Positions 1 to 31,688 of a stretch of DNA of 64,000 bases are shown here, in pieces. The stretch is from NCBI GenBank assembly GCA_051294905.1, contig CM119372.1, positions 29,948,001 through 30,012,000 on the forward strand, read 5' to 3'. The stretch comes from Botryllus schlosseri. Taxonomy: Eukaryota. How positions within the stretch are numbered: the first letter of the stretch is position 1; each line of letters begins with the position of its first letter. Under the pieces are notes generated by a model. That model did no database searches. It was not told the DNA's origin and was given only the letters and a program-made list of their open reading frames with translations. A program made the position numbers and the translations under genes.

Positions 1-393
1 TACTCTTTTCAAAATTGTTACCCAATTTATGCAGATTTCTGCACAAGCCATTTGTATAGGTTTTTCAGGGTAAATGCTTCCTGTATAAATTTCTTCCCAC
101 TCATTTTCCACCAGATGTTTCCCAGGCCAATTATTGTTGAATGTAGTTACACCGTACTTTTGTTTCCAATATCGTAATCGTGGATTTAATTCATCGTACA
201 TTATATCACGTAAGTGATCCGTTAATGTATATGTCATTAACAGAAACTTCAGCGACTTTAATCCTTTATCTATAAGTGTTTCTTTCTGGGGTATCCATGT
301 CGAATGTTGTATCTCCGGATCATCACAACGCAATCCCAAACACATTTTGATACTTTTAGTAATATTTTTACCGTATTCTAATATATTAAACAT
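1..393 (-). CDS. Orphan intronless ORF, open at the window edge; paralog of 9474..10337 (PWWP3A/MUM1 C-terminal-like)
   Basis: Manual translation: ATG at 393, 131 open codons to base 1 (MFNILEYG...MCLGLRCDD...DHLRDIMYDELNPRLRYWKQ...). Not in the ORF track because its stop lies outside the window. Shares MCxGLxC and NPRxxYWxQ with 9474..10337. Confidence 0.7.
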   Translation of the reverse strand, partial: MFNILEYGKNITKSIKMCLGLRCDDPEIQHSTWIPQKETLIDKGLKSLKFLLMTYTLTDHLRDIMYDELNPRLRYWKQKYGVTTFNNNWPGKHLVENEWEEIYTGSIYPEKPIQMACAEICINWVTILKRV

Positions 394-602
394 ATCTTAT
401 TAGTTGAAAAGAACAATACTGAATCAAAACCTCGAGATTCCATATTTTCTTCAAATTACATCAGTTCAATAGTGACTAGCCAAACAATAACGGCAAATGT
501 ACCTGTTAAATGTATAGTTACACAATGGGATAGATTTTTCATCTTATCATAATATAATCTTGATTGTTTACGCACAAAGGGTCTTTTGGTAGATGTTTCA
601 TT

Positions 603-857
603 TGTTATGTTCTTGATCTTGTTTGAACAATAACTCAATGCGACGAGGTTGCAATACAGAATCAGTATATTATCAACAGAATAACTTTAAGGCAGCGACA
701 CGATCCAGAGTGCAGTTAAATGAAAAGACGTAGAGAACAGAACACAAAGGGTATAAATACAAGCACGACACACGAGGAAATAATGATTGGAGGTAATTAC
801 TAGTCCTATAGAAATTAGGAGTGAAACAACACTGAACGTAAATGCACGAACATAACA
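603..857 (-). repeat. 3' LTR of the Gypsy element
   Basis: Direct repeat of 5192..5446 with no mismatch noticed; TG...CA ends with 10-bp terminal inverted repeats; polypurine tract (ACAGGGGAGGAC on minus) adjacent at 858..869. Confidence 0.97.
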
Positions 858-890
858 GTCCTCCCCTGTAAGTTAGAGGGTTGCCCACAT

Positions 891-3800: not shown

Positions 3801-5141
3801 CTGCACGCTTACAGTGCAAATACCTTTCACTTTCAGTGGCTTGTCGCCGTACGCTACGAAAGAGCAAGGGTATGCTGAGAGTTTCGGAGAGCCCAAAGTT
3901 TTGTACCCAGTCAATCCCACCATGGCGGAGGGTGCACCAGTGTCCCACTGTGTCGGCAACGGAATGCCGTTGATGCTGGAGTTGATCCAGAGCTGGTTTC
4001 CTACACGTCGATATAGTTGATCGATGTCGAAGGAGAGGAGTGGCACTGAGCAGAAATTGACGGATGTGACCTGTTGCGTGATACTAGGTTTGGACATGCA
4101 CACAGGTTTGATATGACCTTTACGGCCACATTTCTGACATACTGCATGTCGATATTGACAGTCTTTTCTCTGGTGATCGATGAAACAACGGCTGCAGGAT
4201 TTCAGTCTTTCCGGGAAGTTGCCTTGGTTGGATTTGGAAGGTTTGGGAGGTTTTTTCCCCTTCTGATAACTTCCCGTCATCTTGTTGACGATAGAGGTGT
4301 CTTTACCGCTACTCTCGCCCTGGATAACCCTATCAGTTTCCAGCGTTCTCACGTATGTTGCGGCTACTTTGAGAACGTAGTCGAGGGATGGATTGGTTTG
4401 CGTTAGACAATGCCGTCTCACATCCGCGTGCGGCGTTTCTTTAATGATGAGATCACGCATTAGCTCATCAACGTAGCTCTGATCACAGCCATCTCTTGAG
4501 CATGTGAAGTTGCAATCCTTGGAGATTCCGCGTAGAGTTGCAATCCAATCAGCGTATGACTGTCCCGGCTGCATTTTGCAATTGTAAAATTCGTACCTGG
4601 CAGCTTGCACATGAATGGAGTCTTTGAAGTGTGTAGACAACTTCTCAGTCAACGCGTCGAAAGTTTGCGCACTGACATCAGCAGCACCAAACAAATTACG
4701 TAGGAGCGAGTACGTTTCCGGTCCAACCCATGAGAGTAGACACGCTCTCTTCTTCTCCATGTTGGAAATGCCGTAAATTGCAAGGTGATGGTTGAATCGT
4801 TGCAGATATTGGTCCCACTTCTCCTTTGATTTGATGAACGAATCAAACTTGGGAGCGGTAGCTTCAGATGTTGACGTACCGGGACTCAGCCTCTGCGCTA
4901 ACTGCGATATGGCTTCCTCATGTTGCAGCTTTTGCTGTGCCATATCTTCTTTGTGCTGTGCACGTTGTTGGTTCAAATCTTCTCTGTGCCGGGCATTTTG
5001 CTGCTCCAGCTGTGCCTGTTGTTGCTTGAGCTCTTCTTTACGCTGTGCTTTTTGATTTGCCATGGTTTCTTCATGCTGCTTTTGTTGCTTCGCCGTCATT
5101 TCCTGCTGCTTCTCTAGAAGCTTCAATATACTTGCTTCCAT
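891..5141 (-). CDS. Gag-Pol polyprotein (gag with zinc knuckles, aspartic protease, RT, RNase H, integrase)
   Basis: 1416 aa; CxxC knuckles (CSRC..H..C, CQKCGRKGHIKPVC), WDTGA protease motif, FIDD RT motif, STDAS RNase H, HHCC plus D-D-E integrase, in the Gypsy order PR-RT-RH-IN. Confidence 0.97.
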   Translation of the reverse strand: MEASILKLLEKQQEMTAKQQKQHEETMANQKAQRKEELKQQQAQLEQQNARHREDLNQQRAQHKEDMAQQKLQHEEAISQLAQRLSPGTSTSEATAPKFDSFIKSKEKWDQYLQRFNHHLAIYGISNMEKKRACLLSWVGPETYSLLRNLFGAADVSAQTFDALTEKLSTHFKDSIHVQAARYEFYNCKMQPGQSYADWIATLRGISKDCNFTCSRDGCDQSYVDELMRDLIIKETPHADVRRHCLTQTNPSLDYVLKVAATYVRTLETDRVIQGESSGKDTSIVNKMTGSYQKGKKPPKPSKSNQGNFPERLKSCSRCFIDHQRKDCQYRHAVCQKCGRKGHIKPVCMSKPSITQQVTSVNFCSVPLLSFDIDQLYRRVGNQLWINSSINGIPLPTQWDTGAPSAMVGLTGYKTLGSPKLSAYPCSFVAYGDKPLKVKGICTVSVQVGSEVRVGLKLVVLDEHRGQNIFGLDWSDAFSMTAKGTSALDAISSQMVKSQCNTIDISDSNDKLVSFQSKFPSVLSNVLGRCTKTKVTIHLKPNAKPVFNKPRSLPFARQIAVQTELNRLVNQGILEPINYSDWAAPIVAVTKSNGSVRICGDFKALNQQIQIDQHPLPSLDEILLKLQGGCIFTKIDLADAYFQLELDDDAKNLCVINTQFGLFRYRRMCFGVASSPANFQRCIDAMIAGLPGVASFIDDIIVTGIDERDHFRNLSLLFERLTEYGFTVNFAKCEFFKSSIEYLGHIIDKNGKRPSNKSVEAIKQLPKPQDVRQLQAFLGKVNYYRAFIPNFTNKAASLYRLVQKDAKFIWNTDCDAAFRILKNDVIDATQLAHYDVNKQLILSTDASQFGIGAVLSIEHNGEERPIAHASKTLSDSQKSYSQIEKEALSIIYGVTKFRQFLYGRKFTLVTDHKPLLAIFSPDKKIPVITAQRLQRWALTLMAYQYDIRYKPTNQHGNADGLSRLPKGPDPEFDELEIRENAEIVHAINMAFDCLPLTRNEIRDATLKDKTMKLVKLSVTHGNWNPKVHIDDFSWFSTRKHSLSLHEDIVMLNIDGFQRVVIPQSLRSRVLSLLHEGHWGIAKMKQMARRYIAWPSINRDIENLLKSCDACRKVMKAPDRQYREWPKTSESFERIHLDLAGPINNKMFLVIVDAHSKYPFVKVMNVGSTTTLCVVNALREVFSIEGLPITIVTDGGPQFTSNEFDTFCSNLAISHIVSPSFHPASNGEAERFVQSLKAGIIKNCDGGKDLSFALQTVLATYRCAPHPGIDWKTPAEILHGRQPRNLLSLCSPFDKSKSVTPGQSVTHFEIGSTVYARSYRSGPKWVAGVVTEILGRVVYIIKTDHGYWRRHKNQLQPRLISTGHDKATQEVAQPQQSQAEQPLVRNRAQDPAASPARTSGRRYPLRNRKPTDFYRAT

Positions 5142-5176
5142 GATTTATATTCGTCGCAGAAATAACTATGAATCCG

Positions 5177-5189
5177 ACTTCTGACACCA
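5177..5189 (-). promoter_or_regulatory. Primer-binding site TGGTGTCAGAAGT (tRNA-Leu type)
   Basis: Starts 2 nt inside the 5' LTR and begins with TGG. The tRNA assignment is from recall of this common PBS. Confidence 0.8.
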
Positions 5190-5191
5190 AT

Positions 5192-5446
5192 TGTTATGTT
5201 CTTGATCTTGTTTGAACAATAACTCAATGCGACGAGGTTGCAATACAGAATCAGTATATTATCAACAGAATAACTTTAAGGCAGCGACACGATCCAGAGT
5301 GCAGTTAAATGAAAAGACGTAGAGAACAGAACACAAAGGGTATAAATACAAGCACGACACACGAGGAAATAATGATTGGAGGTAATTACTAGTCCTATAG
5401 AAATTAGGAGTGAAACAACACTGAACGTAAATGCACGAACATAACA
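5192..5446 (-). repeat. 5' LTR of the Gypsy element
   Basis: Direct repeat of 603..857. Confidence 0.97.
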
Positions 5447-6446
5447 TCATTATTATTTCTTTTCAATTTTAAAACTTCCAATCTCGGTAATTTCTTTAGT
5501 AGATAATTACTAAGAAATTGGACGTGATTATAACTAAGGTCAATAGTGTGTAAATACTCGAATGATATATTGGAGGACAGAGAAAAAGACTGCAAGTTAT
5601 TGTGGTACAATGTTAATCTCTCTATATTACATAACGATTTGAGCACTGTCATATCGAACACAACCAGTCTATTTTCATCCAGGTTTAATGTTTCCAATTT
5701 CTTCAGTCCTTGGAAAGCCCCATTTTCTATAACTTCTATTGTGTTTCTTGATAAATCCAGTATTCTTAGACGGCGCAAATGAGCGAAGGTTCCATTCTTC
5801 AATCTTTTTATCTCATTATTGTCCAAATATAGCTTTTGTAAGTTCTTCAGACTTGCAAATATTGATCCTTCTACCTCTTCCAATAAGTTGCTGCTGAGAT
5901 ATAGACACTCCAGTCGGTGTAGATTTGAAAAGCTTTCCTTTTCAATTCGTGTTATGTAATTTCGTATCAAGTTTAGCTCCCTCAGCTTTTCATTTTTGCA
6001 GAAGGCACCTCCTTGTAGCGTTTGGATTTTATTCCAACCACAATGCAAAACCTCTATGTCTTTATATTTTTCTAATTGTTCTTTAGTTATTTCCCGTATG
6101 CAGCTGTCGTTAATGAATAATTTTACTGTATTCCGACAAGATTTTGCCAGGTATATCTGATCAGGATCTGGAATTCTTGTGTAACTCGAATGATCACACC
6201 AAAGTACCAAGTTGCTTCCTTGCATGCATTCCGGGTATAACGAGGTTCGTCTGTCATTGATTGTACACTTCTTTTGTTCTATTGTTTCCGGATAAATAGC
6301 ATTACACATGCCCAGCCATAATACTAATAGTTCCACTCGGTTCATTTTGCTCATGAATGGAACAACCCACAATGCTATGTTATACCTTCAGAAAAGGTTT
6401 CTTTGTAAATCAAAGTCTTATTTATTTTTGTTGACAATTCTCATAA

Positions 6447-8022
6447 TTATTCTGGTATTACAGAGTCAATGTCGACACTTTCCCCTTCATAGGAATGAGG
6501 ATGTATTTCTATACGCCTTATCCTTTTTGTTCGCCGATGGATTGAACTTGAGTAGCCTTTTATTCCCAAATTATTTTGACAAGTCCATTTTTCCGCATGT
6601 GGCGGATCTTTACAATATTCTCTCTCCTGATACACATCCTTTGGTATATTAGTGTTTGTAAGTTTCATTACAAGTCCTCTAATCAATTCATACAACATGA
6701 CTCTTCTTCCCAAAGAGATGTATTCCTTTACTCTTATTTCAAATATCTCTTCTACCACATGATTGAATATATCAAAAATTTCTTGGGTTATTTCTTCATC
6801 TAGGGCTGCTTCTTCTAGGCCAGTGGTTCCCAACCTGTGGTACGCGTACCACTAGTGGTACGCGAAGGTCTTCCAAGTGGTACGCGAGTAGATTCTGTTT
6901 TTTTCGACCAAAGGAAGTTATTAGTTCTGGTGGGATGGACTTTAGGTTTTTCGAAGCCGTCCTCGTCGTGGGTAGGGACAATCCCACCAATGAAGGCCTG
7001 CGGCAGGAGTGGCCAACCTGCGGCCGTAGAAGGGAATTTGTGTTGGCGGCCGTCAACATGCAATTTGAATTTACGAATTGACTCCCGATTTCTTGATAGA
7101 TTTTATTAACCTTGACATTTTCTTCGCGCTGGGTGCGATTCAATGCATCTTCATTTTTCAATTTTAAGCGGCGCCCTTTGCAATTAGAGCCCCACATTTC
7201 AGATTCGAAGAGTAGAGGGAAATGATGCACCCTATATGTAAATACCAACTCGGAATCGTGTACACCTCACTATACCGACAATCCTGATGCGAGGTCAAGA
7301 AATAACAGCATGCAACAAAGTGACTAATAACAATTGGCCCACCCGAAGATGCATCATCATTTATAACTTGCCCTAAATTTTCGAAATCACCCCCTTCATC
7401 AACCCTGCCGGGGAATATGACCACATCCATGGAGTGAGACAGGATAAATGTTTGATAGTACTATGTAAAACTACTAAAATTAATCACGGAATTCAATAGT
7501 GAATCTTTAAAAAAATTCGCGCTTCGCGCGGCAATGCCTGCACTCCATGACATCACCAGTGACCACTCGCGATTTGGGTGCGTATACTCTCAATATATAT
7601 AGCAAGCCTATATGATTAAATAGATTAGTCCGGAGTTCACCAGTTCACCTATACTTAATTACGACTATACCCGGGAATGCGGCCGTGGGCTACATGAATA
7701 GTTGAAATGCGGCCGTGAATGACAAAAAGGTTGGCCACCGGAAACATTTTTGACCGCCTTCGGCGCGTGTAACTTATGTAGGTGGTACGCGAGCACTACA
7801 TAAAACCTCGAAATGGTACGCGGGTGGAAAAAGGTTGGGAACCACTGGTTTAACCCAATCAACTCGGTCCGTAAGTAATTCCCATACTCTTTCTTTTAAC
7901 TGGAATCTATCATCCTCGCTGTCGTATTCTTTCAGATCTAATAGATCCAATTCATCATATACATCGTACTAAAGAAACCAATTCGATGGATTGTGACCTT
8001 CAATATAATCAAAATCTAACAT
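6447..8022 (-). pseudogene. Orphan ORF interrupted by MITE 6821..7847 (segments ~7848..8022 and 6447..6820), with one in-frame TAG in the 5' part
   Basis: The 5' part reads MLDFDYIEGHNPSNWFL*YDVYDELDLLDLKEYDSEDDRFQLKERVWELLTDRVDWVK and joins the 128-aa ORF (R-LEEAALDEE...) in frame if the MITE is removed. Confidence 0.5.
6821..7847. mobile_element. Composite hAT-type MITE (TIR CAGTGGTTCCCAAC) containing a second MITE at ~7004..7739
   Basis: Terminal inverted repeats; GGTACGCG subterminal motifs shared with 39620..39687; the internal part recurs near 38260..39230 and 54956..55420. No matching 8-bp TSD. Confidence 0.75.
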
Positions 8023-9473: not shown

Positions 9474-10337
9474 TCAGCTCATATTAACACCCGAAACAGC
9501 ATGGGTTCCATCAACACTGGGTTTTCGTAAAGCTATCATTCGGGTTGGAGCCTCTAGTCTCTTCGGAAGCCTACTATCTCGACTGGTTGAAGGCTCAATA
9601 TCGAACACCAATGTAGTTTCAAGATTGGTATTTTTGACTATTTGTTCGTTCCCCCCCTTATTTTTCAAGGAATTTTCAAGAGCTGATTCCGACAATTGGT
9701 CAATCGGTAGAATAAAAACGCCCCCCACATAACCAAACGTGCTTGTGGACCCGTATGTAAACCTCCATTGTTCGGGATTTCCTCCAAATAGGAACTCAAA
9801 TTCTGCGTCCATCCGACATCTCGTAAAACAAAATGTTTGCATGTTTTTTGCCCCCCGATATTGTTGCAACAGGAGAGCTATGGCGGTTATTATCGCTTCT
9901 GGATATAACACATAAAGTACTATATGTCCTTTATCTTTTTCGGTGTTTTTATCTAGTCCTTTGTGCATACTACAAGCTTCTAATAAATAGGTATGGCATA
10001 CTTTCATAACTTCCAAAACCTGCCAGGTGTTCTTGAAATATGGTTTTACGTGCCTCATAAGGTAACATTGTTTGCATTCCATGTTCCCAACCGGGTGAAA
10101 AGGCTTTCCTAATTTTGTCCAGTCCTCTTTGGTGTACATAGATTGTTGCCAATACTGCACCCTCGGATTGTCCTTTTCACAAGTGCCAAACAAAAGGCTC
10201 ATCAATCGGTCCCGAACCGGCGCAGTTTTAATGGTTTCCATTACCAACTGCTGCCTATGCGTCAGAGTGAACTGCATTGCCCACTCGTGGACAAACTTGT
10301 GATCCGTATTAGGATTGCACAATAGCCCGTAACACAT
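9474..10337 (-). CDS. Intronless 287-aa protein resembling the PWWP3A/MUM1 C-terminal domain
   Basis: Motif VKPYFKNTWQVLEVMK...DKGHIVLYVLYPEAIITAIA...AEFEFLFG recalls PWWP3A VETYLEDEGQLDLVVK...DRIRFILDVLLPEAIICAIS...AEEKYIKG (from memory, not searched). No PWWP domain. Confidence 0.6.
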   Translation of the reverse strand: MCYGLLCNPNTDHKFVHEWAMQFTLTHRQQLVMETIKTAPVRDRLMSLLFGTCEKDNPRVQYWQQSMYTKEDWTKLGKPFHPVGNMECKQCYLMRHVKPYFKNTWQVLEVMKVCHTYLLEACSMHKGLDKNTEKDKGHIVLYVLYPEAIITAIALLLQQYRGAKNMQTFCFTRCRMDAEFEFLFGGNPEQWRFTYGSTSTFGYVGGVFILPIDQLSESALENSLKNKGGNEQIVKNTNLETTLVFDIEPSTSRDSRLPKRLEAPTRMIALRKPSVDGTHAVSGVNMS

Positions 10338-10519
10338 TTCTTTCTTTAATTAGTTCAATATTTATAATTCTTAAATACAAAATGTTTCTTCTTTATTCAA
10401 ACAACACTTAGGATATTGGTTCATGTTGTACATTAATACGAAACGGATAAAATCTATTGGCTCAACTATATTCACATATTTTCGCTGAATATCTTAGTTG
10501 AACAATGTGCGAGAATTCA

Positions 10520-11038
10520 TTAATCATCAGAATGATGTGATGTTGTAGGTCTAAGTGGAGCGATAGGTGGTTGCTGACGAAACATGATACTGCCAAAAGA
10601 CGCATACGTCCCGTCTGACGTAACATTGCTATTATGCGGCAAGTTGCGGCTTGTTGAAGATGGCGTCAGTAAGGACGTCACAAGAGGACTACTTGTCGAT
10701 GTTGAGGAGCCAGCTTCTATTTCTTCACTTCTATTCTGTTCGTTTGAGGCAGATTTTCTTAGCAAATATGGTTTTACTTTTGCTAACTTTAGATTTTTTA
10801 ATTGTTTTCTACGATAGTCATTTCGCCATGGCCATTCTTTGACCTTTTCATTACTTGCTCCCATTCCTTCGAAGAAGGCTTCTGCATAATGTCTAGTTCC
10901 ATTCTTAATGTCATCGAAAAAATCATTCCATCGTTGTAATCTCTCTGTCTTTTCCACCCCTCGAAGTACTTCATACCATAGTTCGATATTTTCAATAGAT
11001 AACTCCCATAATTGTTCTTTAGTTATTGATGCAGACAT
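10520..11038 (-). CDS. Orphan 172-aa protein with a Ser/Thr-rich tail; possible diverged paralog of 9474..10337
   Basis: ATG-started ORF in the co-oriented array; EVLRGVEKTERLQRW and VKPYL echo LLFGTCEKDNPRVQYW and VKPYF. Confidence 0.55.
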   Translation of the reverse strand: MSASITKEQLWELSIENIELWYEVLRGVEKTERLQRWNDFFDDIKNGTRHYAEAFFEGMGASNEKVKEWPWRNDYRRKQLKNLKLAKVKPYLLRKSASNEQNRSEEIEAGSSTSTSSPLVTSLLTPSSTSRNLPHNSNVTSDGTYASFGSIMFRQQPPIAPLRPTTSHHSDD

Positions 11039-11496
11039 TCTTTCATTTATGACACCTTGTTATTTTTACACCTTAAAATAATAGTGTTTCTTTCAGCCGA
11101 GATTATTGAAAGATATCGTTAATAATATTCCTTTTTCGGTAAAGTTGATTTGGTTTCAAACTTTGAATTTTGCTAATTGTTTATTAAGCCTGTTTGGAGT
11201 TAATTATTCTTTGACCAAGTAGAGAAAGTGTCATTTCTGGTTTTATCAATCCCAACAGTTCTTAATTGCCATAACTAATCTTCTCTTTTATATCACATAC
11301 CAGACTAATTGTTCTCTCTCTCCTAAAATCCACTGAATAACCTATCATTATTCCATGGGTATACAAATCTTTTTCAAACGAAAACCCAGTCGTCCACAAT
11401 ATGCAATTATTTCATTATCAGTCACAGAAAATATAACATATCTGGTAACAGTTGCAACGTTGTTAATGTACAATTATATCGCAAAGCTTTCAAATA

Positions 11497-12000
11497 CTAT
11501 TCGTCCTCCCAGGGACGCCAAAATTTTTCGTAGCGCATGAGTGTTTCCTCGTCTAGAGGTCTTAACAGTTCATGATCCGAGGATAGATCAGATTCACTAC
11601 TATTAATTCCAGAATCAGTATCTGATAGGGTATTCAGACTTTCATCCGAGTCTGTTAAATCACCGGACTCGGAATCCAGATAAGGTCTTAACAATTCATG
11701 ATCTGAGTAAAGATAGGATTCTATACAATCATTTCCAGAGTCGGTATCTGATAAGATACTCAAACTTTCATCCGAGTCTGTCAGATCTGATTCCGAATCT
11801 GTACTGTCTCCCCAAATCGAAGGGTTCCTTTCAAAATAGCTTTTCAAGGTGGTTTCGTCAATTTCTTGTTCGCTTTCTTCACTTTCATCATTCTCACTAT
11901 CGGATGGTGCTTGACACGATTCGAGAATTGCATCTATATTTTTAAGAACCACAACCCAATTTCCGGACCATATCTGCTTATCGAGAATAGAGGGTTCCAT
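11497..12000 (-). CDS. Acidic Asp/Ser-rich 167-aa orphan protein with a 42-aa internal duplication
   Basis: ATG-started ORF; DLTDSDESL..LSDTDSG...SDHELLRP occurs twice (126-nt period, frame preserved); TATATA ~65 nt upstream. Confidence 0.6.
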   Translation of the reverse strand: MEPSILDKQIWSGNWVVVLKNIDAILESCQAPSDSENDESEESEQEIDETTLKSYFERNPSIWGDSTDSESDLTDSDESLSILSDTDSGNDCIESYLYSDHELLRPYLDSESGDLTDSDESLNTLSDTDSGINSSESDLSSDHELLRPLDEETLMRYEKFWRPWEDE

Positions 12001-13859
12001 TGCTTCAGCACTTGTTATGCCTACAGTTATACCAGCAAAGAGATGTATTGTGGTTTCTTTGCCCTATATATACCAGGCCTGTGGAAATGCATGAAGCCTA
12101 TGTGTCATTAATTTTCCAAGTAACCAACAGGAAGCTCCTGTCTCTTTGGGCGAGTTCGCAAAACAGTACGTGGCAATTTTGTTATTGGCCTTATACTACG
12201 TATGTACTCTATCTACAACAACTTCACCTCTCAGCGTAGGAGTTGTTATTTACACGCCTCATTGCGCAAATCAAGTCGTTAAATTTTATTGCACCACAAT
12301 TTGATCGGGAATTTGTTATGCCTCAATCAACTTTGTGCCTGGACATTTCTTATTGAACGAAACTCCACTGCGGGTCAAATATTAAACCATAGTGCTTCGT
12401 ATGTCAAATGATCAGATTTTAGCACATTCTTAGTACCGTCATTGCTATATAAATACTGTATCATTGAAGTCGTAATGTCTTACTACAGAATCTGCCCAGC
12501 CGACCCGGACTTGTGTGAATCATTGGCCGGATGTTATCTAGTGCATGATTTGTAGTAAAGCTCTAGTGCATACTAAAGACCCGTTTCCTTTACCGTCTCC
12601 TTCACCGTCCCCTCAAAACATCGAGTCACCAATTTTTACTGTAGATAAGTCCTCATATCAAATGAGCGAGGACTGCCAAAATACGAGATAGAACCTCAGT
12701 TTATGACGCGCGTCGCCATTTTGTAAGGCTAACGATGGAAAATTCGACAACTCTGAATCCGCGCAATGAACCGCGAATAGACTCGGATGGGCTTATTTGT
12801 TCAGTTGTTCACGTTAAAAATCAAAGGATCAGGCCGAATTTTTTAGACTCATAACCTCTTTGTGCTGCACACAAGTTGTGGAAGTAATGATTAGATGCGC
12901 ACTTTCGCGTTTGTTACAATAATTAAGCTAACAAATACTGTCCGCTGAACACCGCCATATACCTTCGGTAGTTTCGTGGATAATTGAAAGCACCTCAAGT
13001 TACTATCAAATTCGACTTGCTGATCAGGGCATACATGGACCAGGGACAGACATTAACCAGCACGTTTGTCTCCCATTTGTACTCGTAATGCTGCCTACTA
13101 CAAATTGTCGATGACCCATTTCGTATACAAATGATTTGCGCTACATTATGCGTATTATACGCATGTGGGTCGGTTACCGTCCATATAGAAAATTTTCGAA
13201 ATAGTTACACTCTCTGAGTGTACTTATTGTTGATGTTCATATATCTATTTCACTGTAACTCTAGCCCTAGTTCGACAACTTGTGCCCGTCGCCACCGCCA
13301 AATACGGGCAATCAGGTATGACCAGAGCACCCCGTAATTGTGACTACTGTATATTTGCGTTCTGCTCGTGATTCCGTTATCAGTCAAACCTTGCCAGCCG
13401 ATTGAACAGTCGTTACTATGTATTGTACACAACGTATTTGGTAGATTTTAGCAAATAAACAATCGCTATTGGATTTACCGATTCAATCTCGTCGTTAAAA
13501 CGTAATTAATAATGTGCATACCGAATAACACCATCTTCTATCATGACTTTATGATCAAATATAAGTTGAGTTTTTTACCTTCTATAAATTTTGGTGCACA
13601 TTATATAACGATGAGATCCGTCAGTCATGTTTGAAATACTACTCAATCATGTTTGTGATAACCATCCCAGCGCCAAGCTAACCAGCCAAAATAGACATTT
13701 TCAGCTATTAATCATCACAACATAAGCTACCCAATAATGGAAGCCCACTGTGTTGGCGGTATGATCATTTATCGACAAACCATGTTCATTCATTTATGCA
13801 CACCAATTTGTTCATACCAATAAACCGCGTCAATACACATAGAACTCATTGTACTTCTG

Positions 13860-20500: not shown

Positions 20501-21806
20501 ATGATGTTCGTTGCATAAGCAACAGTAATACCGTGAATTTGCCGCGTACAATATTCAATAATTAACATAACAACATAACACATAACAACCCTCATTTCTA
20601 CTTTACAATAATTCGGCATTTATTTTACAATATTTATCTTAGTTTGTCATGCAATGTCACTGCAGTAATATACGTCTTTCGGTTATTCCGCCGAATAACC
20701 TCCCTAAGATAATTTTTTGAAGTGACTCTCCGGCATTTCGCATAACCTAAATACATACATCCTACCATTGCCGTTACGCTAACCGCAAAAATCAAGGCAT
20801 AATTGTTAGTTGATTCTTCTAAACCCTTCTTATTATTAATATCAATAATAGTTCTTCCTACTGTATAAGCTTGTTCCATTTCCAGCAGTTTGTGTAATTC
20901 TCCGTAGAAATCAAATGTAATTCGGTCCGGTCTGTCATCTTTGGTAGTAGATAAGGTAAGCGGTATATCGAGTGTAGTTATTCCTTCTTCGACTGCGGGC
21001 GTAATTGATGAACGTGCACTATTGGAAGTCCTCTTCCAACTTTTGATCACATCATTTTTACTTACTGATGTTGGTTCGTTCTGGCCGTACCTTGATGAAA
21101 GCAATGATGTTGATTTAGTTCTTACCTTTAGGTCTTGTTCCCGAGTTTGGTCATATGCTTTGGTGGTAGAGTGAGCCTTGTTGGTGACGAAATTTCGGTG
21201 CATTCCAACTATCGTTGCTATTCGTGTTGTATCAAATAACATGTTGAGGTACGGTGTCGTCTCCACGAATTCCTTAGCGTAACGATTTGATTGCATTGAG
21301 GACTCAGATGTCCGCATAATCTGCGACGTTTCTATAGGCATTGAAATAGAGTTTGACATTTCACCGCTTTTTGTGGGTATTTGATAAGTCGTGGTATCCC
21401 ATTGTAACGGTGTATTTGCAGTTTTCTCTATGGGTGTAGGTATTGTTAACTCATTTTCAGAAAAGGTGGTTCCTGTCGTTGTGACACCAATACTTTTCTG
21501 AGCGTCCATCTCTGTTAATACAGCCAAATCTTCCGTCGTCGGATCCCCAGTCGTAAAAAACTCTGTGGAACTCACTCTGCGTCTTTCTCGTACACTCGCA
21601 GTTTTCACTGTAGTTAAGAATGTAGTTATAGATACAGTCGGTCTTGAGCTAGCGTTATCCTCGCGTGAGGAATGCGTTGTCGTCGATATGGCAGGAAGTG
21701 GTGTCGATGAAGCCGTTCCGGAAGTAATAATAGCCGATGTCAACCTTCTGGTGTATGGCGTGATTCCAGTAGTTGTTAATTAAATAGTATATTCATATTG
21801 AAATGA

Positions 21807-21840
21807 ACCCGAATATTTTCGGCTGACACTCGTCAGGGGT
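21807..21840 (-). ncRNA. Minimal hammerhead ribozyme (mirror copy)
   Basis: Exact reverse complement of 23582..23615. Confidence 0.78.
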
Positions 21841-21941
21841 AATCGTCAGCAACTAGTAGAGAATTGGAAAGAACATTGTATATCAACAATCGTATCACAA
21901 AATATGACGTCACCAGCATGAAATTTCGAATGAGAGAGCGT

Positions 21942-22677
21942 TCAATGTACTATTTTTAGGTGATACACGAACTCCTTTTGTTGACAGAGTTTTGGTTGGT
22001 GTATTTTGATAAAAGTTGATTCCAAGGCACACAAATGGAATTGTGAACGGCCTCGACCTACGATTCGAAATCGGTCGTCTCGATAATTATTCGCACAAAT
22101 CGGATTATCCAACAAATGTTTGCCGATGGCAGAATTAATTGCCTTTGATCGATCAGCATCAATCTTAAGTGGATGAGTTAAGGGTGAGCTTTTCACATCG
22201 CGTGACGCACGTGTTCTGATAAATCTGGGGACATGTTGGTTTATGCGGTCCTGCAGACGTCTTGACGTTCTTCCCACGTAGCCACAATCACAGTGGCACC
22301 TATATTCGTACACTACATTACTTTGTTGAAGTGCAGGAAGCACGTCTTTGCGTGTTGAAGGGAGCAGTTGTGTTGTTGTAAAAATCACATTGGTTTTGAC
22401 TGTATCGTAACATTTACCGACAGCAGAAATCAATTGTTTTTCAAAGCGGGTGGAAATGGGGCCAATCCAAGGTAGATGGATATAAACATCTTTTATTGTT
22501 CGTGCGGTGGGCTCTGTTCGTTTTTCTGCGTTGAATTGCGTTAATTTCCTCTCCATGCCGCGGCTGATGACGTGTTCAGGGTAACCATTATCAAGTAAGA
22601 TTTTTCGGATGTAGTCAAGTTCTAAACTCAGTTTGTTACCCGAACATATCATCAACGCTCTATGCACGAGTGTGCCT
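21942..22677 (-). pseudogene. Penelope ORF 3' fragment (RT thumb/linker and GIY-YIG), inverted copy
   Basis: NVVYEYRCHCDCGYVGRTSRRLQDRINQH motif; translation identical to the plus-strand copy. Confidence 0.9.
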
Positions 22678-22699
22678 GGAAGGCCGGAAGGCCTGGATT

Positions 22700-23480
22700 C
22701 CGCTGGAATTCATTTAGTCCTCGGCGCAGAAAAATTAACCTCATAGGCACACTCGTGCATAGAGCGTTGATGATATGTTCGGGTAACAAACTGAGTTTAG
22801 AACTTGACTACATCCGAAAAATCTTACTTGATAATGGTTACCCTGAACACGTCATCAGCCGCGGCATGGAGAGGAAATTAACGCAATTCAACGCAGAAAA
22901 ACGAACAGAGCCCACCGCACGAACAATAAAAGATGTTTATATCCATCTACCTTGGATTGGCCCCATTTCCACCCGCTTTGAAAAACAATTGATTTCTGCT
23001 GTCGGTAAATGTTACGATACAGTCAAAACCAATGTGATTTTTACAACAACACAACTGCTCCCTTCAACACGCAAAGACGTGCTTCCTGCACTTCAACAAA
23101 GTAATGTAGTGTACGAATATAGGTGCCACTGTGATTGTGGCTACGTGGGAAGAACGTCAAGACGTCTGCAGGACCGCATAAACCAACATGTCCCCAGATT
23201 TATCAGAACACGTGCGTCACGCGATGTGAAAAGCTCACCCTTAACTCATCCACTTAAGATTGATGCTGATCGATCAAAGGCAATTAATTCTGCCATCGGC
23301 AAACATTTGTTGGATAATCCGATTTGTGCGAATAATTATCGAGACGACCGATTTCGAATCGTAGGTCGAGGCCGTTCACAATTCCATTTGTGTGCCTTGG
23401 AATCAACTTTTATCAAAATACACCAACCAAAACTCTGTCAACAAAAGGAGTTCGTGTATCACCTAAAAATAGTACATTGA
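22700..23480 (+). pseudogene. Penelope ORF 3' fragment (RT thumb/linker and GIY-YIG)
   Basis: VVY...YVG GIY-YIG motif with Cys insert, SAIGKHL, ALESTFI; the RT core is missing (5'-truncated). Confidence 0.9.
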
Positions 23481-23581
23481 ACGCTCTCTCATTCGAAATT
23501 TCATGCTGGTGACGTCATATTTTGTGATACGATTGTTGATATACAATGTTCTTTCCAATTCTCTACTAGTTGCTGACGATT

Positions 23582-23615
23582 ACCCCTGACGAGTGTCAGC
23601 CGAAAATATTCGGGT
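23582..23615 (+). ncRNA. Minimal type I hammerhead ribozyme in the Penelope pLTR
   Basis: ACCC-CTGACGA-GTGTCAGCC-GAAA-ATAT-TC-GGGT: conserved CUGANGA and GAAA cores, UH site (C23611), stem I ACCC/GGGT, palindromic ATAT in place of stem III. Confidence 0.8.
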
Positions 23616-23776
23616 TCATTTCAATATGAATATACTATTTAATTGTATATTGAAGTTCTGTACCTCCAAGAAGCTCTTCAAGTAGTTGTTAATGTAGACG
23701 CAATACTCTCCGATGTATATGCAGACGTTCGTGGCGTAGGAGTTGTTGTATCAGTTGTTAACTTGATTGTGTATCG

Positions 23777-25271
23777 CAGCGGTTCTCAACCGGGGGTCCG
23801 CGGACCCCTAGGGGTCCGCGAAGCAATTTCAGGGGGTCCGCGAGACCTCTAAATTTTTAAAATGGCTGATCACGCATAATCTTCGTTTTATTTTTTAATT
23901 TGAGAAAGCAGTAGGCAGTTTCGCACCACAACTGCTAAAACCTCATGACTCATATCATCATCATAATCGTCTGACATGAACTATCGTAGTGCGGAAATTC
24001 ATTTTTATTGCCAATTTTCCAATAACCTGCTGATACATACGTATTGCTGTTTAGAGACGTTCTGTTGGGGTTTGTGAAAAAAAATAAAAATATGGAGATA
24101 GTAACGTCCATCAGGGTGACTTCTTAGTGTCTGCGAAACCTTCTCGATTTGAAGTTGTCAGTCTCATCAAATTAGTGAACAGTGGTTTGAAATAAAAATT
24201 TCCGAAGTATTTCCCTAATTGGTCCCAATGTAGGGATTGAAACCTCGCCACGAAATCCATTTTATCCTGTGATATACCTAACCACTATTTGAACAGCTTC
24301 TTGGAGGTACAGGACTTCAATATAGAATTGTATAGTATAGTCATATTGAAATGAATCCGATTATTTTCAGCTGACACTCGTCATTAATCGGACAATGATA
24401 TACTTGTTCTTAAAGCTCGGCTATCAGATTTGGCGCATTCTTCTTGCGGATGCCCTATCTTCAAGGCAAATTTTTCGATGCGCAAGGAGTGTTTCGTTGC
24501 TATCAAAGCATTACGCCCCAACCCTGAAATTCATATCACCAGTTATATTGGTACGCAGCCTTGTCTTGTTAATGTTCAATTGTTCATGGTCGAAAATGTT
24601 TGCTCGTAAATATATAAGTAAACCCGAACAGAACAAGTCGTTTCATGACAGTCCTTCTCAGGTTGGAAAACTTGGATCCATTCTTTGGCGCATAAAATTT
24701 GTAGATTAGATTAGATTAGGATTTCACTTTGACGGTAGAAACTCTCTGCAAATCGATCAAAATGCCATCGCGGACCGAATCCGGCCTGTGGTCCGAATGT
24801 TGCCCGTCCCTGCGCTAGATGCTGGACGTGATATGTTCATAAAATATATGTTTCTTCATTTTGTTGCCATAAATGTTGCGATCCCACCAAAAGTATCGTC
24901 GGAAGCGTCATGCGTTAATATTGCATTAGCCTCCATCTACCTTTGCGGAAATGGTTTTTGGCACTCCTCGTTTCATATCAAAACAAAGACGCGGATTTTC
25001 AAGACACGACCACGTACTTCAAGAAACACAGCAGCAAAATTAGATTTGAAATAATAAAAGTCTACCAATTTCTACATAAATAGTATGATGTTATTTTCAA
25101 GAAAAATCAATATTTTGCTGTTTATCACAAGCCTATAAAGTTCATAATTGCACAAAACAAATGAAGGTCGCACCATAATAGAGCTAAAATTGAACTAAAT
25201 CTTGAGGGGGTCCGCGAGGGTCCGTGACGGTCAAAAGGGGTCCGCGAAGCCAAAAAGGTTGAGAACCACTG
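23777..25271. mobile_element. Non-autonomous hAT-type element (TIR CAGYGGTTCTCAACC)
   Basis: TIRs, GGGGTCCGCG subterminal repeats, perfect 8-bp TSD GTGTATCG (23769..23776, 25272..25279); related copy at 43264..45434. Confidence 0.92.
24290..24383 (-). repeat. Diverged solo Penelope pLTR/tail fragment nested in the MITE
   Basis: Reverse-complement match to 23587..23680 with several mismatches; absent from the related MITE at 43264. Confidence 0.75.
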
Positions 25272-27532
25272 GTGTATCGACTCCCTGTAGTCAAGGTTGG
25301 AGTTTCAGTCGTTGATAACGCAATTGTAGTTCCAATAATATTTGTGGAAGTCGTAGTATCAGCAACGGGTACAGGCTTTCTTCTTAGAGAACTGTCATAC
25401 TCGCCGTCTGCGTCATAATAGTCATAGTAGTAATTTCCAGGTTCTCGATAATTAGTATAGTTGTCATATCCATCATAGCTAAATCCCTCGTAATCTTCAA
25501 TACTATCATAATTATAACGTTTAACATCGTATTGATCCGTCCTTCTTACACCTCCCTCAGTGTTTGTGATGGTTTCCACCGTTCTCATTGTTGGTTCTTG
25601 ACTCATTCCGATAGGAGTGAAATTATACAATGTACCAGACTCGCTATTGGGAGCCGCCCTTCGAGTGGTCCCTTCATGACTGACGGGCCTTGTTGTTATT
25701 ACTTTTGCAGTACTTAATGGCCTTGCGGAGTTTGTTTTTATTTTGGTATTTTCCTTATAGGCATAAGGTGTATATAGCAATATTCCCGCACATATTATAG
25801 CTTTGTAGGCAACACTAGGTCGGAATAGCCGTATATCACGAAGCTGTGCCCCTCTCAATTTGCGCGTTGACATGTAGCTCAATAACCCATTATTTATCCT
25901 ACTCAGTTTCCGTTGCGTCAATGCTGACCCCAGTTCCTGACTTAAAGATTCCATTTCAGCGATTGTTGTAGATCTTTCCAGTCTCTCTAGATTTTTTCGC
26001 TTTTTATATATGGGAAGAGACAACTGGCGTAAACGCCTTTTCGTTACTTCTACATAAAACATTCCTAGGCGGGCTAGATAATATTCAATATTTCTTGTGT
26101 TTTGTCCATTGTTTTCAAATGATGCAGTCAGAACGAAGTTGCCTAATCTCCCGGGTTGTTTACAATAGGGTAGATTCTTGGGCCATGCTTTAAGCGAAGA
26201 TTCTTGACCTGAAGGTCTCGGGGATGCAATTTGTAATCGACCATTGTTATGATCTGCATACACGGGTTGATTTGTGTATGGATCATATAACACGTCCTTG
26301 AAGACCAAGGCCGTTTTCAGATTTCCTATTGTATTTCGACAGACTTTTCTATTCTTTTTGCGTTCACATTCCAGGCTACCTTGTAACAATGTCGGAAAAT
26401 TATTCGTCCCCATTATCCGTAGAGTTTCGTTATTTAGATGTTCACGAAGGGCATAAACCCTTAACCTGAACCATGTGTGACCGTCAAAGTTCGCTGGTCT
26501 TTCTCTGGGGCCTGTCTCATTGCGAGCTTTCAGCCATACTATATCGTGTTGTAGCCTGGGTAACTTGACTCCCGCTGGCCATTGGCTGTAAGAATAGGTA
26601 TCTTGCATTCTTGTCCCAAGTCCTCTTATGCTATTATCTATCTCCCTGATTACAAAGTCTCTGGACAGTGTATTTACTGTAAGATTGTCTGCATAAAATA
26701 CGCATCCTGAACATTGCATTCGGCCAGTTTCTTCGTGAACACATACACTAAATTCGCCTTTGTTGATTTTCCACCCCACGATTCCTTCCGAACGCTGTTG
26801 ACACTTCGCTGTCACTGTTGCATATTGTGACAATAGATTCATTACTGATAACTTGTAAACTGTCAACAGCTGGTGTATAGTAACTTGTGGGGTCGTATTA
26901 GGAGAGATTATCCTATGAATAGCTCTCGGCACGGCCATAGGAACACGTGCTTCTCGTCCTACAACATACTTCCATGTATGTATTGATCCAAAGTCACTTT
27001 TCCGACGATATGTTGTGGTTCTGGTCAGGGCTAATAACGTAATATCGGGAGATATTCGTGATAGTTTCCGATTGCATCCACATTCTCTTTCGTATTGCCT
27101 AACATTGCTCCAAAACCGCCTCTCAGACCCTGAGGGTGCAAATAACTTATACAATTGACCATGACCCGCTCGTGTTGGACCGAATTCGGGCGTTTCTTCA
27201 TATATTGATAAATTATTTTCCGTTTCACCTATTGGCCAACTCTCATTTAATCTAAATAGTCGATTAAGGCGGATATATTTGAGACCTTGATATCGGAACG
27301 TTGTCCATCCTGTGAGGTTAAATTTGATCCTGGGCACCGCACTCATAGCGGATAGGGGCAATAATTCGCCATGAGCTTGCAGATATCTTCGGTGCAGTAT
27401 TAAGGCCACTGCCAGCACACTCCATACTTTCAGGTAACAGTTCATAGTATTATAATTAGTTAGTATATCTGTAGACTATATGATACAGTTAGATTTTATA
27501 AAAGCAAATGTTTTTGAGTACATATGTATGCA

Positions 27533-29979
27533 CTACATCCTTGTCGATTTGGCTGTTTTCAAGTAGGTAGGAGTCGATGATATGTACATTGTCAATTGGG
27601 AGTTAGTGTTCCGCCTTTGTACCTTAGATTTTAACTTGGGACAGCAGAGACTGCTATAACGAAAGCAGCAAAACAAGATGATCCCAGCCCCCAATATCAA
27701 AATCAATGGAATTAACACGGACCCCAGGCCGGAGAAAATACCACTCAATCCTTTACTGAATATTCCACCGGCCGCGCCAAGTCCATCTTGTAGTAAATCA
27801 CCCGCGCTATTTCTACCGATTTTATCAAACTGCCGGCACCGTGCGTCATTTCTTCTATAGTTTGGCCCAAGTTCTTCATAAATTCTTCACCTCCAACAAA
27901 TTCGAAGGGCTTCACTGTAATGTTCTCATATCGCCAGTGAGAAATATTCATGTACACACTCTTATTCAGATCTTCTCTCCAAACTTGTAATCCCAGATCC
28001 ACCCTCTGTTGGGCTTGATCTAGACTGATACGATTTGCACGTAGCTCCAAACCAATGTCATTCGTCTCATTGATAAAAGCGTCTCTATAGGCTGTTAATC
28101 GCTGAGCATGTTCTTTTATCCGCAATGTCCCTCGCCGAATTTTCGTGAGATATATCTTGCTGGAATCAAATATTAGTTTGCCAGTTAAGTTTGCCAATTC
28201 GTCTAAAACCAACCGATCGATGGCCAGTTCAGCTTCATTCAGTTCCTTATAGTTTTGAAAAGAGGTCAGAGAGGCTGTGGCTTGTCTTACTATCATCTGT
28301 CGGTTTCTCTCTATATACTTTTCCATTAGTACAAGACGTTTATTTACTAATGATGCCCTTACCTCCAAGGTGGCGACCGTCTGATCCAGTTTCTGTTGTT
28401 GAGCCCTTTGTAGTCGAGAAAGTTCGTTAATCTTTCTCCCTAGTGCAGTGGACCTCTGCGTGGCTTGTATCATTCTGTCATTAATCTGTCTGCTAAGATC
28501 CACTGTCTCTTCATGTAACTGGGATGAAACTGTCGCCACGACGGCTATTGCAGACACCAAGCCAAATACAAGGCATAGTAGTCCAGACAGGAACCTTTTA
28601 CGCCTTTGACGCGTGCCCCGATTGGCAATATCTCTCGATACCATGTCACCTTTAATTTCTATTGGGCCCCCTGGGAAACGTAGTCGGTTTCGTTCCGGAT
28701 CAAAGTGAATATGGTCCCAAAATGCTGCCTTCAATTCGGGTCCGCCTACCGGGTCACGGCACACCTCCTGGTTTCTTGAAATTCTATTTTTACATGCCAT
28801 GTTCGACTCAGTAAGAGAGGGAAATTTTAACCATATAGGCATGGTATCGGACTTTGATGGTACACCATCATAATGATTATCCCACCGTCCGAATCGTTCA
28901 AGTCTACGATACGAACCCCCCAAGTTCGGAAAAGACGGAAATATCCATTTAACTCTGTGAGGGAAATTTGTCATTGGTAGATCACCCCATAAAGTGACAT
29001 TTGTTCCTGGCCAGAAGTTACACGAGTGGGCTATTCTGGCATATTCATGCCACCAAGGGTCCTGGGGCCATCGGTTCTCGTAATACTCTTGGTTGACCCA
29101 TCCTCCGTGGACCCTGCATGGTATCAACGGCCGAACCTGTGACTCCCAGTCACTTACTTTAGTCATTACTACTTCTCGGATGATTATATCTGCCTTATTT
29201 GGTTCAAGGGCCGAGATTACTCCCTTAATGTCGCATCTCGTACAGATTCCTATCCTGACCCCCTTCTTTACTAGATGCCAGCATTGTGTAAAACTATTGC
29301 TACTGGCATTGTACTTGTTCAATTCTCCCATTTTTTCCATATCCCGATCTCTCATTCGCTCTTGGCGGCACAAGGCTTCAACAGCTGAATACCTTTCGAA
29401 GACTCGAAGCTTAATTAATTTAAATTTAGTCATGGCAAACATGGAGTAATTCCTTCCAAGTTCCTTGAACAAGTAAGTGTTTCCAGACCAAAACCAGCGG
29501 ATCCTATAAGGTCCTATCGGACGAATGAACGTATTTGTTTGATTAAGGACATCATAGGAAATATTAGGCGAAATTTGGCCCAGGCGCCGCTGACAGAGGC
29601 AGGTGCGTTCAAATTCTTGTACGCTTGTCCAATACCGCCCATGTGGGAACGCCATTTGTTGTAATGAAAATCGCTCAGCCACTACGTAACCAAATGACTT
29701 GCTATAAAACAACTCCGGTCGTCTATATACATGTCGCTCAGCCGTCTTATTGAAGATGCTCATCACGTGATAGTCCTCCCACTGTGTCTCATTCAAAGTC
29801 ACCCATTCCTCGGGTAGGGGTCCTCGTAGTTCACCTAGCGTCCCCTGAGTGAAAGACCGTGCTCTACTTGTTACAGAATCTGTGAGTCCGTGCATGCCTT
29901 TCGCCTCCGTATGCTGCAAGCAATCAAATGTACTATTGATACCAAAAGAGACAAGAATAAGATAAACGAAGCAGTCCAT
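27533..29979 (-). CDS. Class I viral fusion-protein-like envelope glycoprotein (~815 aa if a single 1-nt frameshift is corrected)
   Basis: Signal peptide MDCFVYLILVSFG, many N-x-S/T sites, RQRRKR furin site followed by hydrophobic FLSGLLCLVFGLVSAIAVVATV (from 28593), long heptad-like helix. The -1 frame carries DGLGAAGGIFSKGLSGIFSGLG, TM VLIPLILILGAGIILF and CC-containing tail (27533..27748). Confidence 0.85.
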
Positions 29980-30112: not shown

Positions 30113-31181
30113 TTATAAACCTACAGGAGACCCGTCAAATTTGTCAAAATTATACTGTGGGTCATTGTGTATGGTGCGCAGGAGTGCCAGAAATCGGTCA
30201 ATTTTCTGATGTTGACGTTTCCACAAAAACTCCCCCACGTAATCGGCCAAAAGATGACGTGCTAAACCACGAGACCTATGTAAATGATACTTGAGCTGGC
30301 TCCAGCAACATTCCACGTCATTGGTATGGCGAGATGTCCGAGGGTCTTTAAACCAAGAAGAATGATCCACTACACCGTGTATATAACCCTTCCCCCAGCT
30401 CTCTATGCCCTTATAGGAAGGGTAGGCATCGGTCAAAATCGTGGACCCCTCTGCTACATTCTCTACTATGAGTTTTCGAAATACTTCAGCAGTCCTGTCG
30501 GCAGTTATCTCAATGAACATTTCTCCGGTAGCTTTATCTATGCCCCCGAACCCCCAAATGGCTTTAACAGCTGGTCCTTTACCCGAGGCAGCCCGGCGCT
30601 TAGCTAAGTGCGTCTCATCAATGATAACACAGCCTTCTTTACCTCCCAAACGTCGTTTATTCCTGCGAAATTCGGCAGTACAAATTTTTCGCAGTCGTCC
30701 ACACCAAGCGACAACTGAACGCTGGCTAATCTCGGCTTCATGTGCAATTTGGGTTTGCAACGCGTCATGGGCCCAAAAGTAGAATAGTATTAGCAATTTG
30801 GGAAGTTCTACCTTGCTTCTTGCGAATAGCGAGTATTTCCGTATAGTCGCCGTAGTATCGCACGGGTTGCATCGCCACCTAAATCCATCGTCACACGTCG
30901 ACGTACTCTCTTCCTTCATTATTTTTTTACATCGTTGGCATTTCATCCTTCGCACCAGCAGCCCGTGATCTCTCAGAAATAGCACACAATCTCGTGTGTT
31001 GAGTAGCGCACCCGATTCGATCAAACTCAACACATTGTATGTTCTTCCCCGCGTATCTGCGCAAGTAAGCAATACAGTATGTGTCGTCCATCAACTCTCT
31101 ACCGTCCTTTGCGGATCGGACCCCTTTTTCTCGACCTATTATATATCCTATTTCTCTCTTAGTTAGTCCCGTATTAATCAT
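30113..31181 (-). CDS. Merlin / IS1595 (ISXO2-like) DDE transposase, probably with a short 5' intron
   Basis: Zn ribbon CQRC...WRCNPC, HTH region, IIDET, WGFGGID, ILTDAYPSY, VDHS..F.DP...HTNDVECCW motifs. The long ORF lacks an ATG; ATG 31181 joins it in frame via GT (31135 or 31102) ... AG (31057). Confidence 0.9.
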
Positions 31182-31310: not shown

Positions 31311-31360
31311 TAGACCTCCGGGTACTTATTTCACTAGTACCAAGATTTTGAATCCAGGAT

Positions 31361-31688
31361 AGGAAAGGAAAGGACGTAGTTTATTTTTGTCCTTGATGTT
31401 TTTGCGGCATATACACCGACTCATGATATACATACACACGATCTGCGCATATGCATACCATGATTGCATGATGTGCATATGCCGCTGGACAAGGAAATGC
31501 AGATATAGCCTTTACGACTTTCTAAGTCATGCACCACCCCTCCACGCTATCCCAGTAATGCATGAGCGCCAAGCAGGGAAGCCATGGATACCAGTGTTAC
31601 TAATCAGGTCTTTGGTCTGACCCGGCCGGGAATCGAACCCACGACCTACCGATCAAGAAGCCGGGCGCTTAACCATTACGCTATCTTG
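31361..31688 (-). mobile_element. tRNA-derived SINE
   Basis: Pol III A box TAGCGTAATGG, B box GGTTCGATTCCC, body sequence, CCTTT-repeat tail. Confidence 0.8.

Follow-up and report, generated by a model that had tools for sequence, protein, structure and literature searches.

The F gene lies on the minus strand of a 64,000-nucleotide stretch of the Botryllus schlosseri genome (contig CM119372.1, positions 29,948,001 to 30,012,000; hereafter the window), and it is one copy of the envelope-like gene of a repeated mobile element of 18-44 kb. The original prediction had treated F by itself, as an orphan fusion protein with a frameshift, and its place in a large mobile element goes beyond that description. 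It apparently represents a type of animal retrovirus-like element that has not been described before. According to the reading favored here, to which we assign a probability of about 0.7, it is reverse-transcribing and probably enveloped, passes through a circle in the manner of pararetroviruses, and owes its integration to a Merlin transposase. No element of such make-up was found in the literature; because Repbase, Dfam and subscription journals lay outside the search, an earlier entry is conceivable, if rather unlikely.

In the available text of a 2025 survey, reverse-transcribing groups integrate by means of a retroviral integrase or a tyrosine recombinase, or have no dedicated integration (PMC12440569). 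If the favored reading is true, the element represents a further solution to integration, in which a retro core is joined to the end system of a DNA transposon, a link between transposons of classes I and II. It would also bear on the origins of pararetroviruses and enveloped retroviruses, stretch the size limit of reverse transcription, and add a fusogen lineage without known match as well as a spliced leader apparently serving as a strand-transfer repeat. The frameshift in F is itself ordinary, and the element is the main finding.

A repeated element with Merlin-type ends

F does not stand alone, contrary to its earlier description as an orphan. In its own genome (495.5 Mb) the gene yields 42 matches at the DNA level, and a protein search gives 66 matches representing 63 loci (three second pieces having been dropped), down to 27% identity. 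In 58 of these loci the RT of the element is found on the same strand, at most 80 kb downstream (51 loci) or at most 10 kb upstream (7 loci), the probability of such linkage by chance being about 0.006 per locus. In all of the first 15 loci fetched, F is located between a transposase gene of the IS1595/Merlin type and the gene of a second glycoprotein, G. A clean sibling copy is 39.8 kb long, and some copies are 98-99.8% identical; together with the 58 linked loci, these near-identical copies make the circle model testable.

The element is bounded by imperfect inverted repeats of about 23 bp that start with GG. As the repeats are imperfect, no perfect inverted copy of the left-end 22-mer could be found, and the ends were found by comparing copies instead. 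The flanking 8-bp duplications are identical in 29 of 34 end pairs, corresponding to 28 of 33 left ends of family A (one left end was paired twice); the other five comprise one pair with a single-base difference, one shifted by one base, and three without a match. The duplications are also present in 4/4 copies of two distant families, and in three of five copies of a family with a permuted gene order, the other two left ends being outside the DNA fetched. GG-starting terminal inverted repeats, duplications of 8 bp (8-9 bp) and a DDE_Tnp_IS1595 domain are the marks of Merlin in the available part of the literature on this group (PMC8101967), and the element displays such ends and duplications along with a DDE_Tnp_IS1595 transposase that has the DDE triad. 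No terminal direct repeats (LTRs) were found in the three copies tested.

Two gene orders occur with intact ends, one with the transposase, F and G ahead of gag-pol, and the other with gag-pol ahead of the transposase, F and G; they are circular permutations of each other. In the permuted family, whose full order is cargo, gag, pol, transposase, F and G, three of the five copies traced have intact ends of their own. Compact families of 17.8 and 19.6 kb retain the transposase, F, G, gag, pol, the ends and the 8-bp duplications. Short copies of 8-14 kb exist, and the ends never pair at distances below 8 kb; some of these copies have neither F nor G and have spread with their own duplications, and several have a deleted pol.

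All element genes tested are under purifying selection. In 12 pairwise comparisons, dN/dS ranged from 0.06 to 0.22 for F, the transposase, G, pol and the leucine-rich-repeat (LRR) gene, with individual values of 0.13 for the transposase, 0.16 each for G and the LRR gene, and 0.06-0.09 for pol; the gag pair was saturated. These values bear on the possibility that the element reverse-transcribes and integrates but is intracellular, F and G being kept for cell-cell fusion or for blocking the entry of related elements. The spread of short copies devoid of F and G agrees with such a life, as do the absence of particle evidence and of F reads at 97% likeness in one RNA run, of which 6% was read. In every family seen, however, F and G flank the transposase (at 28-30% identity) and are under purifying selection, as expected of virion proteins, which makes an exclusively intracellular element quite improbable next to the enveloped one favored here.

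The F protein and the copy in the window

In the window the element is on the minus strand. Its left terminal inverted repeat (31320..31341), which starts with GG and imperfectly matches the right end over about 23 bp, is bordered by an 8-bp target-site duplication (31342..31349); the same 8-mer is found past the far end, 81.4 kb off, at G000:C2:29897933. The copy thus spans from its left end at 31341 to a right end 81.4 kb away, placed by comparing copies. From the left end, it comprises a Merlin/IS1595-type DDE transposase in a 325-aa frame (30113..31090; Pfam PF12762, E 1.3e-9), F, the N-terminal part of G interrupted by insertions (25184..27445), and the C-terminal part of G with a TM segment (20634..21779). 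Cargo follows, with three ORFs of 188 aa (acidic), 179 aa and 291 aa, the last with a weak PF20886 match (9474..12063), and a secreted-looking LRR protein with part of an orphan ORF (5404..6851). The element extends through positions 1..602 and beyond the window start, where the region G000:C2:29897933-29948000 harbors IAP, E2, orphan ORFs, a copy of the spliced leader, the primer site, gag and pol. This copy is decayed: insertions split its G gene, and stops and nested elements interrupt its gag and pol.

Several other repeats are found in and around this copy. A young Gypsy-type LTR retrotransposon with identical 259-nt LTRs and an intact 1417-aa gag-pol including an integrase is nested at 599-5446, and a related copy of it lies just past the window start. 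A perfect 900-nt inverted repeat with pieces of a GIY-YIG ORF (Penelope-like) is present inside the G gene at 21778-23644. The insertion site of the window copy (31350-31600) is a very high-copy, transcribed host repeat.

The anatomy of F was described accurately beforehand. On the minus strand, a main frame of 744 aa ends at the stop at 27745 (27745..29979), and a second frame of 117 aa is open over 27533..27886. The polybasic furin-type site RQRRKR (aa 457-462; 28594..28611) directly precedes a hydrophobic segment, the predicted fusion peptide (aa 463-483; 28531..28593), with a 19-residue hydropathy of up to 2.6 and a helix at 464-479 in the structural model. The second frame codes for a Gly-rich stretch, a TM segment (about 27662-27730; hydropathy 2.9) and a Cys-rich cytoplasmic tail with Cys-Cys motifs. 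The N-terminal hydrophobic stretch, previously called a signal peptide, is modest (hydropathy 1.6).

The final 22 aa of the main frame are out of frame. Agreement of the main frame with a sibling copy ends at aa 722, and from about that point the second frame agrees instead, which places the break near 27811-27814. It is shared with none of 14 other copies. Eleven of these have a single open frame of 820-839 aa from the start to the anchor, and the other three are broken at other places, which argues that the break is damage private to the window copy. The frameshift is very probably an inactivating mutation, an instance of ordinary decay, and of the three explanations offered in the original prediction this is the one that fits. 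The other two, an assembly error and a programmed switch between soluble and anchored forms as in filovirus GP, are highly improbable. One contig of run X3 does depart from the window at the break, as another allele or a sibling copy would. In contrast, contigs (not raw reads) from each of three DNA runs, made from one sample that is possibly the source of the assembly, cover the break in the window's form at a depth of about 10-15, the contig piece listed reaching 30 letters past the break, one short of the bridging rule. Also against both are the confinement of the break to this copy and the fact that several further genes of the copy are broken. Programmed frameshifting was rejected, as no slippery heptamer, long base run or editing run is present at the break.

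F is predicted to be a class I fusogen by its layout, outside any named fusogen family. In agreement with the earlier proposal of a class I layout in a new lineage, the furin site, the hydrophobic segment, the heptads, the Gly-rich region and the TM segment follow one another in the same order in each of the 11 genomic copies aligned, even at 29% identity, which indicates that this order does not result from chance. The polybasic site stands directly before the hydrophobic fusion-peptide segment (aa 457-483) in 12/12 aligned sequences, and the single C-terminal TM anchor that is out of frame in the window copy is in frame in 11 of the 14 siblings.

An AlphaFold2 model built from 46 sequences (mean pLDDT 69.6, pTM 0.54) places after a beta-rich head the helix 464-479, a 110-residue helix at 488-597, a beta-hairpin at 608-627 and another helix at 628-673. 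The helical segment of some 200 residues claimed earlier is thus predicted as two helices separated by a hairpin, not as one continuous helix. A central trimeric coiled coil, HR1-like, is predicted after the fusion peptide (aa 477-597; 28189..28551). In the model of three copies of aa 464-720, an interface with heptad-register contacts at 477-570 (pLDDT about 50) scored 0.34, compared with 0.00 for the best control. Of 30 solved pairs, 21 attained the mark used, against none of 23 single chains (17/29 and 0/30 for eukaryotes); it was calibrated on dimers, and the F model, whose runs share at least 35% of contacts with a pLDDT of at least 49, is uncertain and just above it. The interface speaks for a possible trimer, and the confident contacts do not include the predicted helix 628-673, which would pack back in a six-helix hairpin.

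Searches for known relatives of F were negative. F has no significant sequence match in Pfam or the PDB, the best PDB profile having an E of 0.092, and the Foldseek comparison suggested beforehand returned no match at E<=0.001 in the viral library. The nearest neighbors by language model are haemagglutinin, paramyxovirus F and coronavirus S2 (0.90-0.93, a weak likeness given a recognition of 1207), and the F homologue P0051 has a foamy Env match over the TM region that is below the cut-off. A profile search among 1.84 billion representatives retrieved 57 relatives at E<=0.001; none of the ten looked up carries a name. Viral contigs yielded no relatives of F. Class I fusion proteins such as paramyxovirus F, haemagglutinin, coronavirus S2 and retroviral Env have in common with F the cleavage site, the fusion peptide, a long trimeric helix (predicted in F), a second helix, the membrane-proximal region and the TM segment. 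F differs from these named proteins in having no significant sequence, profile or fold match, and its beta-rich head is shared only with the G protein of the element itself.

Gene content and signs of passage through RNA

The clean copy codes on one strand for the transposase, F, G, orphan ORFs, the LRR protein, a second transposase, IAP, E2, gag and pol, and the element has about 20 ORFs, gag-pol and host-like cargo included. The transposase has CxxC motifs near its N-terminus, and D, D and E are retained in 8/8 aligned sequences. G has a head distantly paralogous to that of F (22% identity, E about 1e-8), followed by a Ser/Thr-rich stalk; in sibling copies it is encoded by a single frame of about 1160 aa. 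Given its paralogous head, its stalk and its TM segment, G is likely to be an attachment protein. Cargo at L029:1458-6543 comprises an apoptosis inhibitor with three BIR domains and a RING, an E2 ubiquitin-conjugating enzyme and four related orphan proteins. The cargo region of some copies (L028:9412-10000 to L029:1-356; L142:2147-3163; L164) contains the second transposase, also of Merlin type, which shares about 39% identity with the first; no ends were seen flanking it.

Gag has a CCHC knuckle; its likeness to retrotransposon gag is 0.90, with nine of the ten best matches coming from one clan. The gag-pol overlap contains an A AAA AAC slippery site in 4/4 families. Pol consists of a protease motif, RT (YIDD) and RNase H, followed by a KptA/Tpt1 domain (PF01885) in the place of the integrase. 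No rve integrase was found by Pfam in 22 ORFs of the clean copy and 15 from other families (37 ORFs, three families). By analogy with the chemistry of Tpt1, the KptA domain may serve in the processing of tRNA primers or of RNA or DNA ends. A small hydrophobic ORF is situated between the primer site and gag (L029:7770-7990; L137:6128-6460).

The region upstream of gag bears several signs of passage through RNA. Eighteen nucleotides there are complementary to the CCA end of a tRNA of the host, which is Ile(AAT) or Thr(AGT) depending on the family. This primer site is present in 26 of 28 elements of one set and behind 15 of 19 leader matches of another, the four misses being three of the five copies of the permuted family and one match outside any element. 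About 190-270 nt upstream of the primer site, a 23-nt block found in 28/28 elements equals the 'Chordata 1' spliced-leader consensus, as listed in Table 1 of PMC3795323, the part of that article relied upon here. The short copies checked for both keep the leader and the primer site (7/7). In four RNA runs of the host species, thousands of reads end at the leader block, with varied sequence in front and, behind it, an adaptor that we take to be the template-switch oligo. Because so many reads carry the block at their 5' end, it is identified as the host's spliced leader. The leader sequence occurs 447 times in the genome, far more often than the element, and its presence alone is therefore weak evidence; many of these occurrences may be retrocopies or leader genes. 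No Rfam match was obtained for the leader region.

A further sign is the pattern of inheritance around the leader. When pairwise identities were correlated between adjacent 130-nt segments in 24 copies, the coefficients were 0.48, 0.66, 0.07, 0.86 and 0.80, the value of 0.07 being that across the leader; such pairwise values are non-independent. There is thus a sharp recombination break at the leader, as expected if the reverse transcriptase jumps templates there. When joint inheritance of the two ends was tested, their correlation of 0.27-0.43 did not exceed that of the left end with the region before the leader (0.48). Partial tandem relics of the leader are present in two element copies. 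A copy on C5 (L029:7439) does not have the spacer of 7-8 nt ending in AG that follows the leader in its near-identical siblings (L025 and L046), which looks as if it had been trans-spliced at the AG and then copied back into DNA. Against passage through RNA, no polypurine tract is shared within 2.5 kb upstream of the leader.

These features have to be weighed against the possibility of a giant Merlin transposon that moves by cut-and-paste only, having captured a gag-pol-env retroelement and host genes as useful cargo, with an RT that does not copy the element. The ends, the 8-bp duplications and the transposase are plainly Merlin by the available description of that group (PMC8101967), the size of the element speaks against RNA copying, and pol is deleted in several short dispersed copies. 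In addition, the four RNA runs, which barely covered the element, contain no reads that join the right end to the left end; RNA joints that bypass the element altogether come from the empty site, and no RNA dataset is listed as holding the F stretch. However, a mere cut-and-paste transposon leaves unexplained why a host leader is fixed before the primer site with a recombination break there, why gene orders are permuted with intact ends, why pol is under such strong selection, and why no ends pair within 8 kb. We consider it unlikely, and prefer a reverse-transcribing element that uses the transposase for its integration.

Proposed cycle and nearest known systems

Since the primer site is in the middle of the element and F is upstream of it, copying of F through RNA needs joined ends, and a DNA circle is inferred on this basis. 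In the proposed cycle, the transposase would excise the element, whose ends would join into a circle. RNA would then be made round the circle, with the host spliced leader at its start and its end just past the element's own copy of the leader. Gag would package this RNA, and Gag-Pol would be produced by a -1 shift at the conserved slippery site. Primed by tRNA-Ile or tRNA-Thr, the RT would copy back to the leader and jump to the 3' end, the leader serving as a short terminal repeat for this transfer. As integrase is absent, the product would close as a circle with one repeat, which the transposase would open at the joined ends and insert. Cleaved, trimeric F would fuse membranes and G would attach, so that particles could pass between cells, and the IAP, E2 and LRR cargo might blunt host defence. 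Against this cycle, a 40-kb RNA template is far longer than is usual for such an RT.

Taken to its full extent, this model describes a family of enveloped animal pararetrovirus-like viruses, hitherto undescribed, whose reverse-transcribing genome would be circular and as large as 40 kb. They would have lost integrase and acquired a Merlin transposase that integrates and excises them exactly, use the host's spliced leader as terminal repeat, carry KptA in pol, and enter cells by a new class I fusogen and a paralogous attachment protein. We place the odds of this complete scenario at about even.

In a tree of RT-RNase H with 23 rows, the element groups with its relatives in a clade of 100/100 support, whose stem measures 2.3 changes per site and which is separate from the gypsy-like rows and from the single caulimovirus-like row; the tree, which has no retrovirus, BEL, copia or DIRS rows, does not settle the sister group. 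The best match of the RT among solved structures is 8r0s, 'Enzymatic polyprotein' (E 9e-19), which we take to be a caulimovirus RT.

Env-carrying Ty3/gypsy elements (errantiviruses in the wide sense, Burro, Tor) also have gag, protease-RT-RNase H and a tRNA primer site, as well as a furin-cleaved F-like envelope gene, according to the available portions of two reports (PMC6431247, PMC13524379); the first also mentions BIR and BCL2-like cargo in Burro. In contrast to Ty3/gypsy, the present element has no integrase and no LTR pair, and it has TIR ends, a separate Merlin transposase and KptA. Its duplications are of 8 bp, compared with 4-6 bp in Metaviridae/LTR retrotransposons. Unlike env-carrying Ty3/gypsy elements, it has an RT on a long stem of its own and an F with no Pfam match to PF12259 or PF00523.

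Caulimoviridae, the plant pararetroviruses, resemble the element in having a Gag-like protein, protease, RT and RNase H and no integrase, as summarized in the available text of PMC12440569, and a circular intermediate with an internal primer site, which is inferred in the case of the element. The element differs by its animal host with a chordate spliced leader, its two envelope glycoproteins, and a transposase that gives exact ends and duplications; no match to a movement protein, a trait of Caulimoviridae, was found among the element ORFs scanned by Pfam.

In Teratorn, a piggyBac transposon fused to an alloherpesvirus, a DDE transposase and TIRs similarly integrate a virus-like gene set that has no integration machinery itself, as far as the available text describes it (PMC6431247), whereas here the transposase is Merlin/IS1595 and its partner is a reverse-transcribing gag-pol-env set. 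Merlin itself (IS1595/IS1016 group) is a simple one-gene DNA mover, unlike the present element, whose 18-44 kb include gag and pol, two glycoproteins and cargo. The transposase of the element has N-terminal CxxC motifs, while the Merlins described in the available part of PMC8101967 have no zinc-finger domain. DIRS-type elements likewise have an LTR-like RT and an integrase replaced by another recombinase, in the available account of that 2025 survey (PMC12440569). The element differs from them by a DDE transposase rather than a tyrosine recombinase, and by the presence of protease, primer site, duplications and envelope genes.

Distant RT copies with 47-50% identity are present in the same genome at G000:C1:967949, C1:23960259, C2:22048949, C3:28676885 and C12:19132293; they have no F match within 80 kb and possibly represent another family. 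Beyond this genome, ENA and Logan data contain pol relatives that have the same KptA-type tail, and so do two short marine contigs, where gag precedes pol. For the F homologue P0030 and the pol relative P0003, both from an ENA assembly, the same contig of 1,287,913 bases is listed, which suggests that the F-pol pairing exists in another organism.
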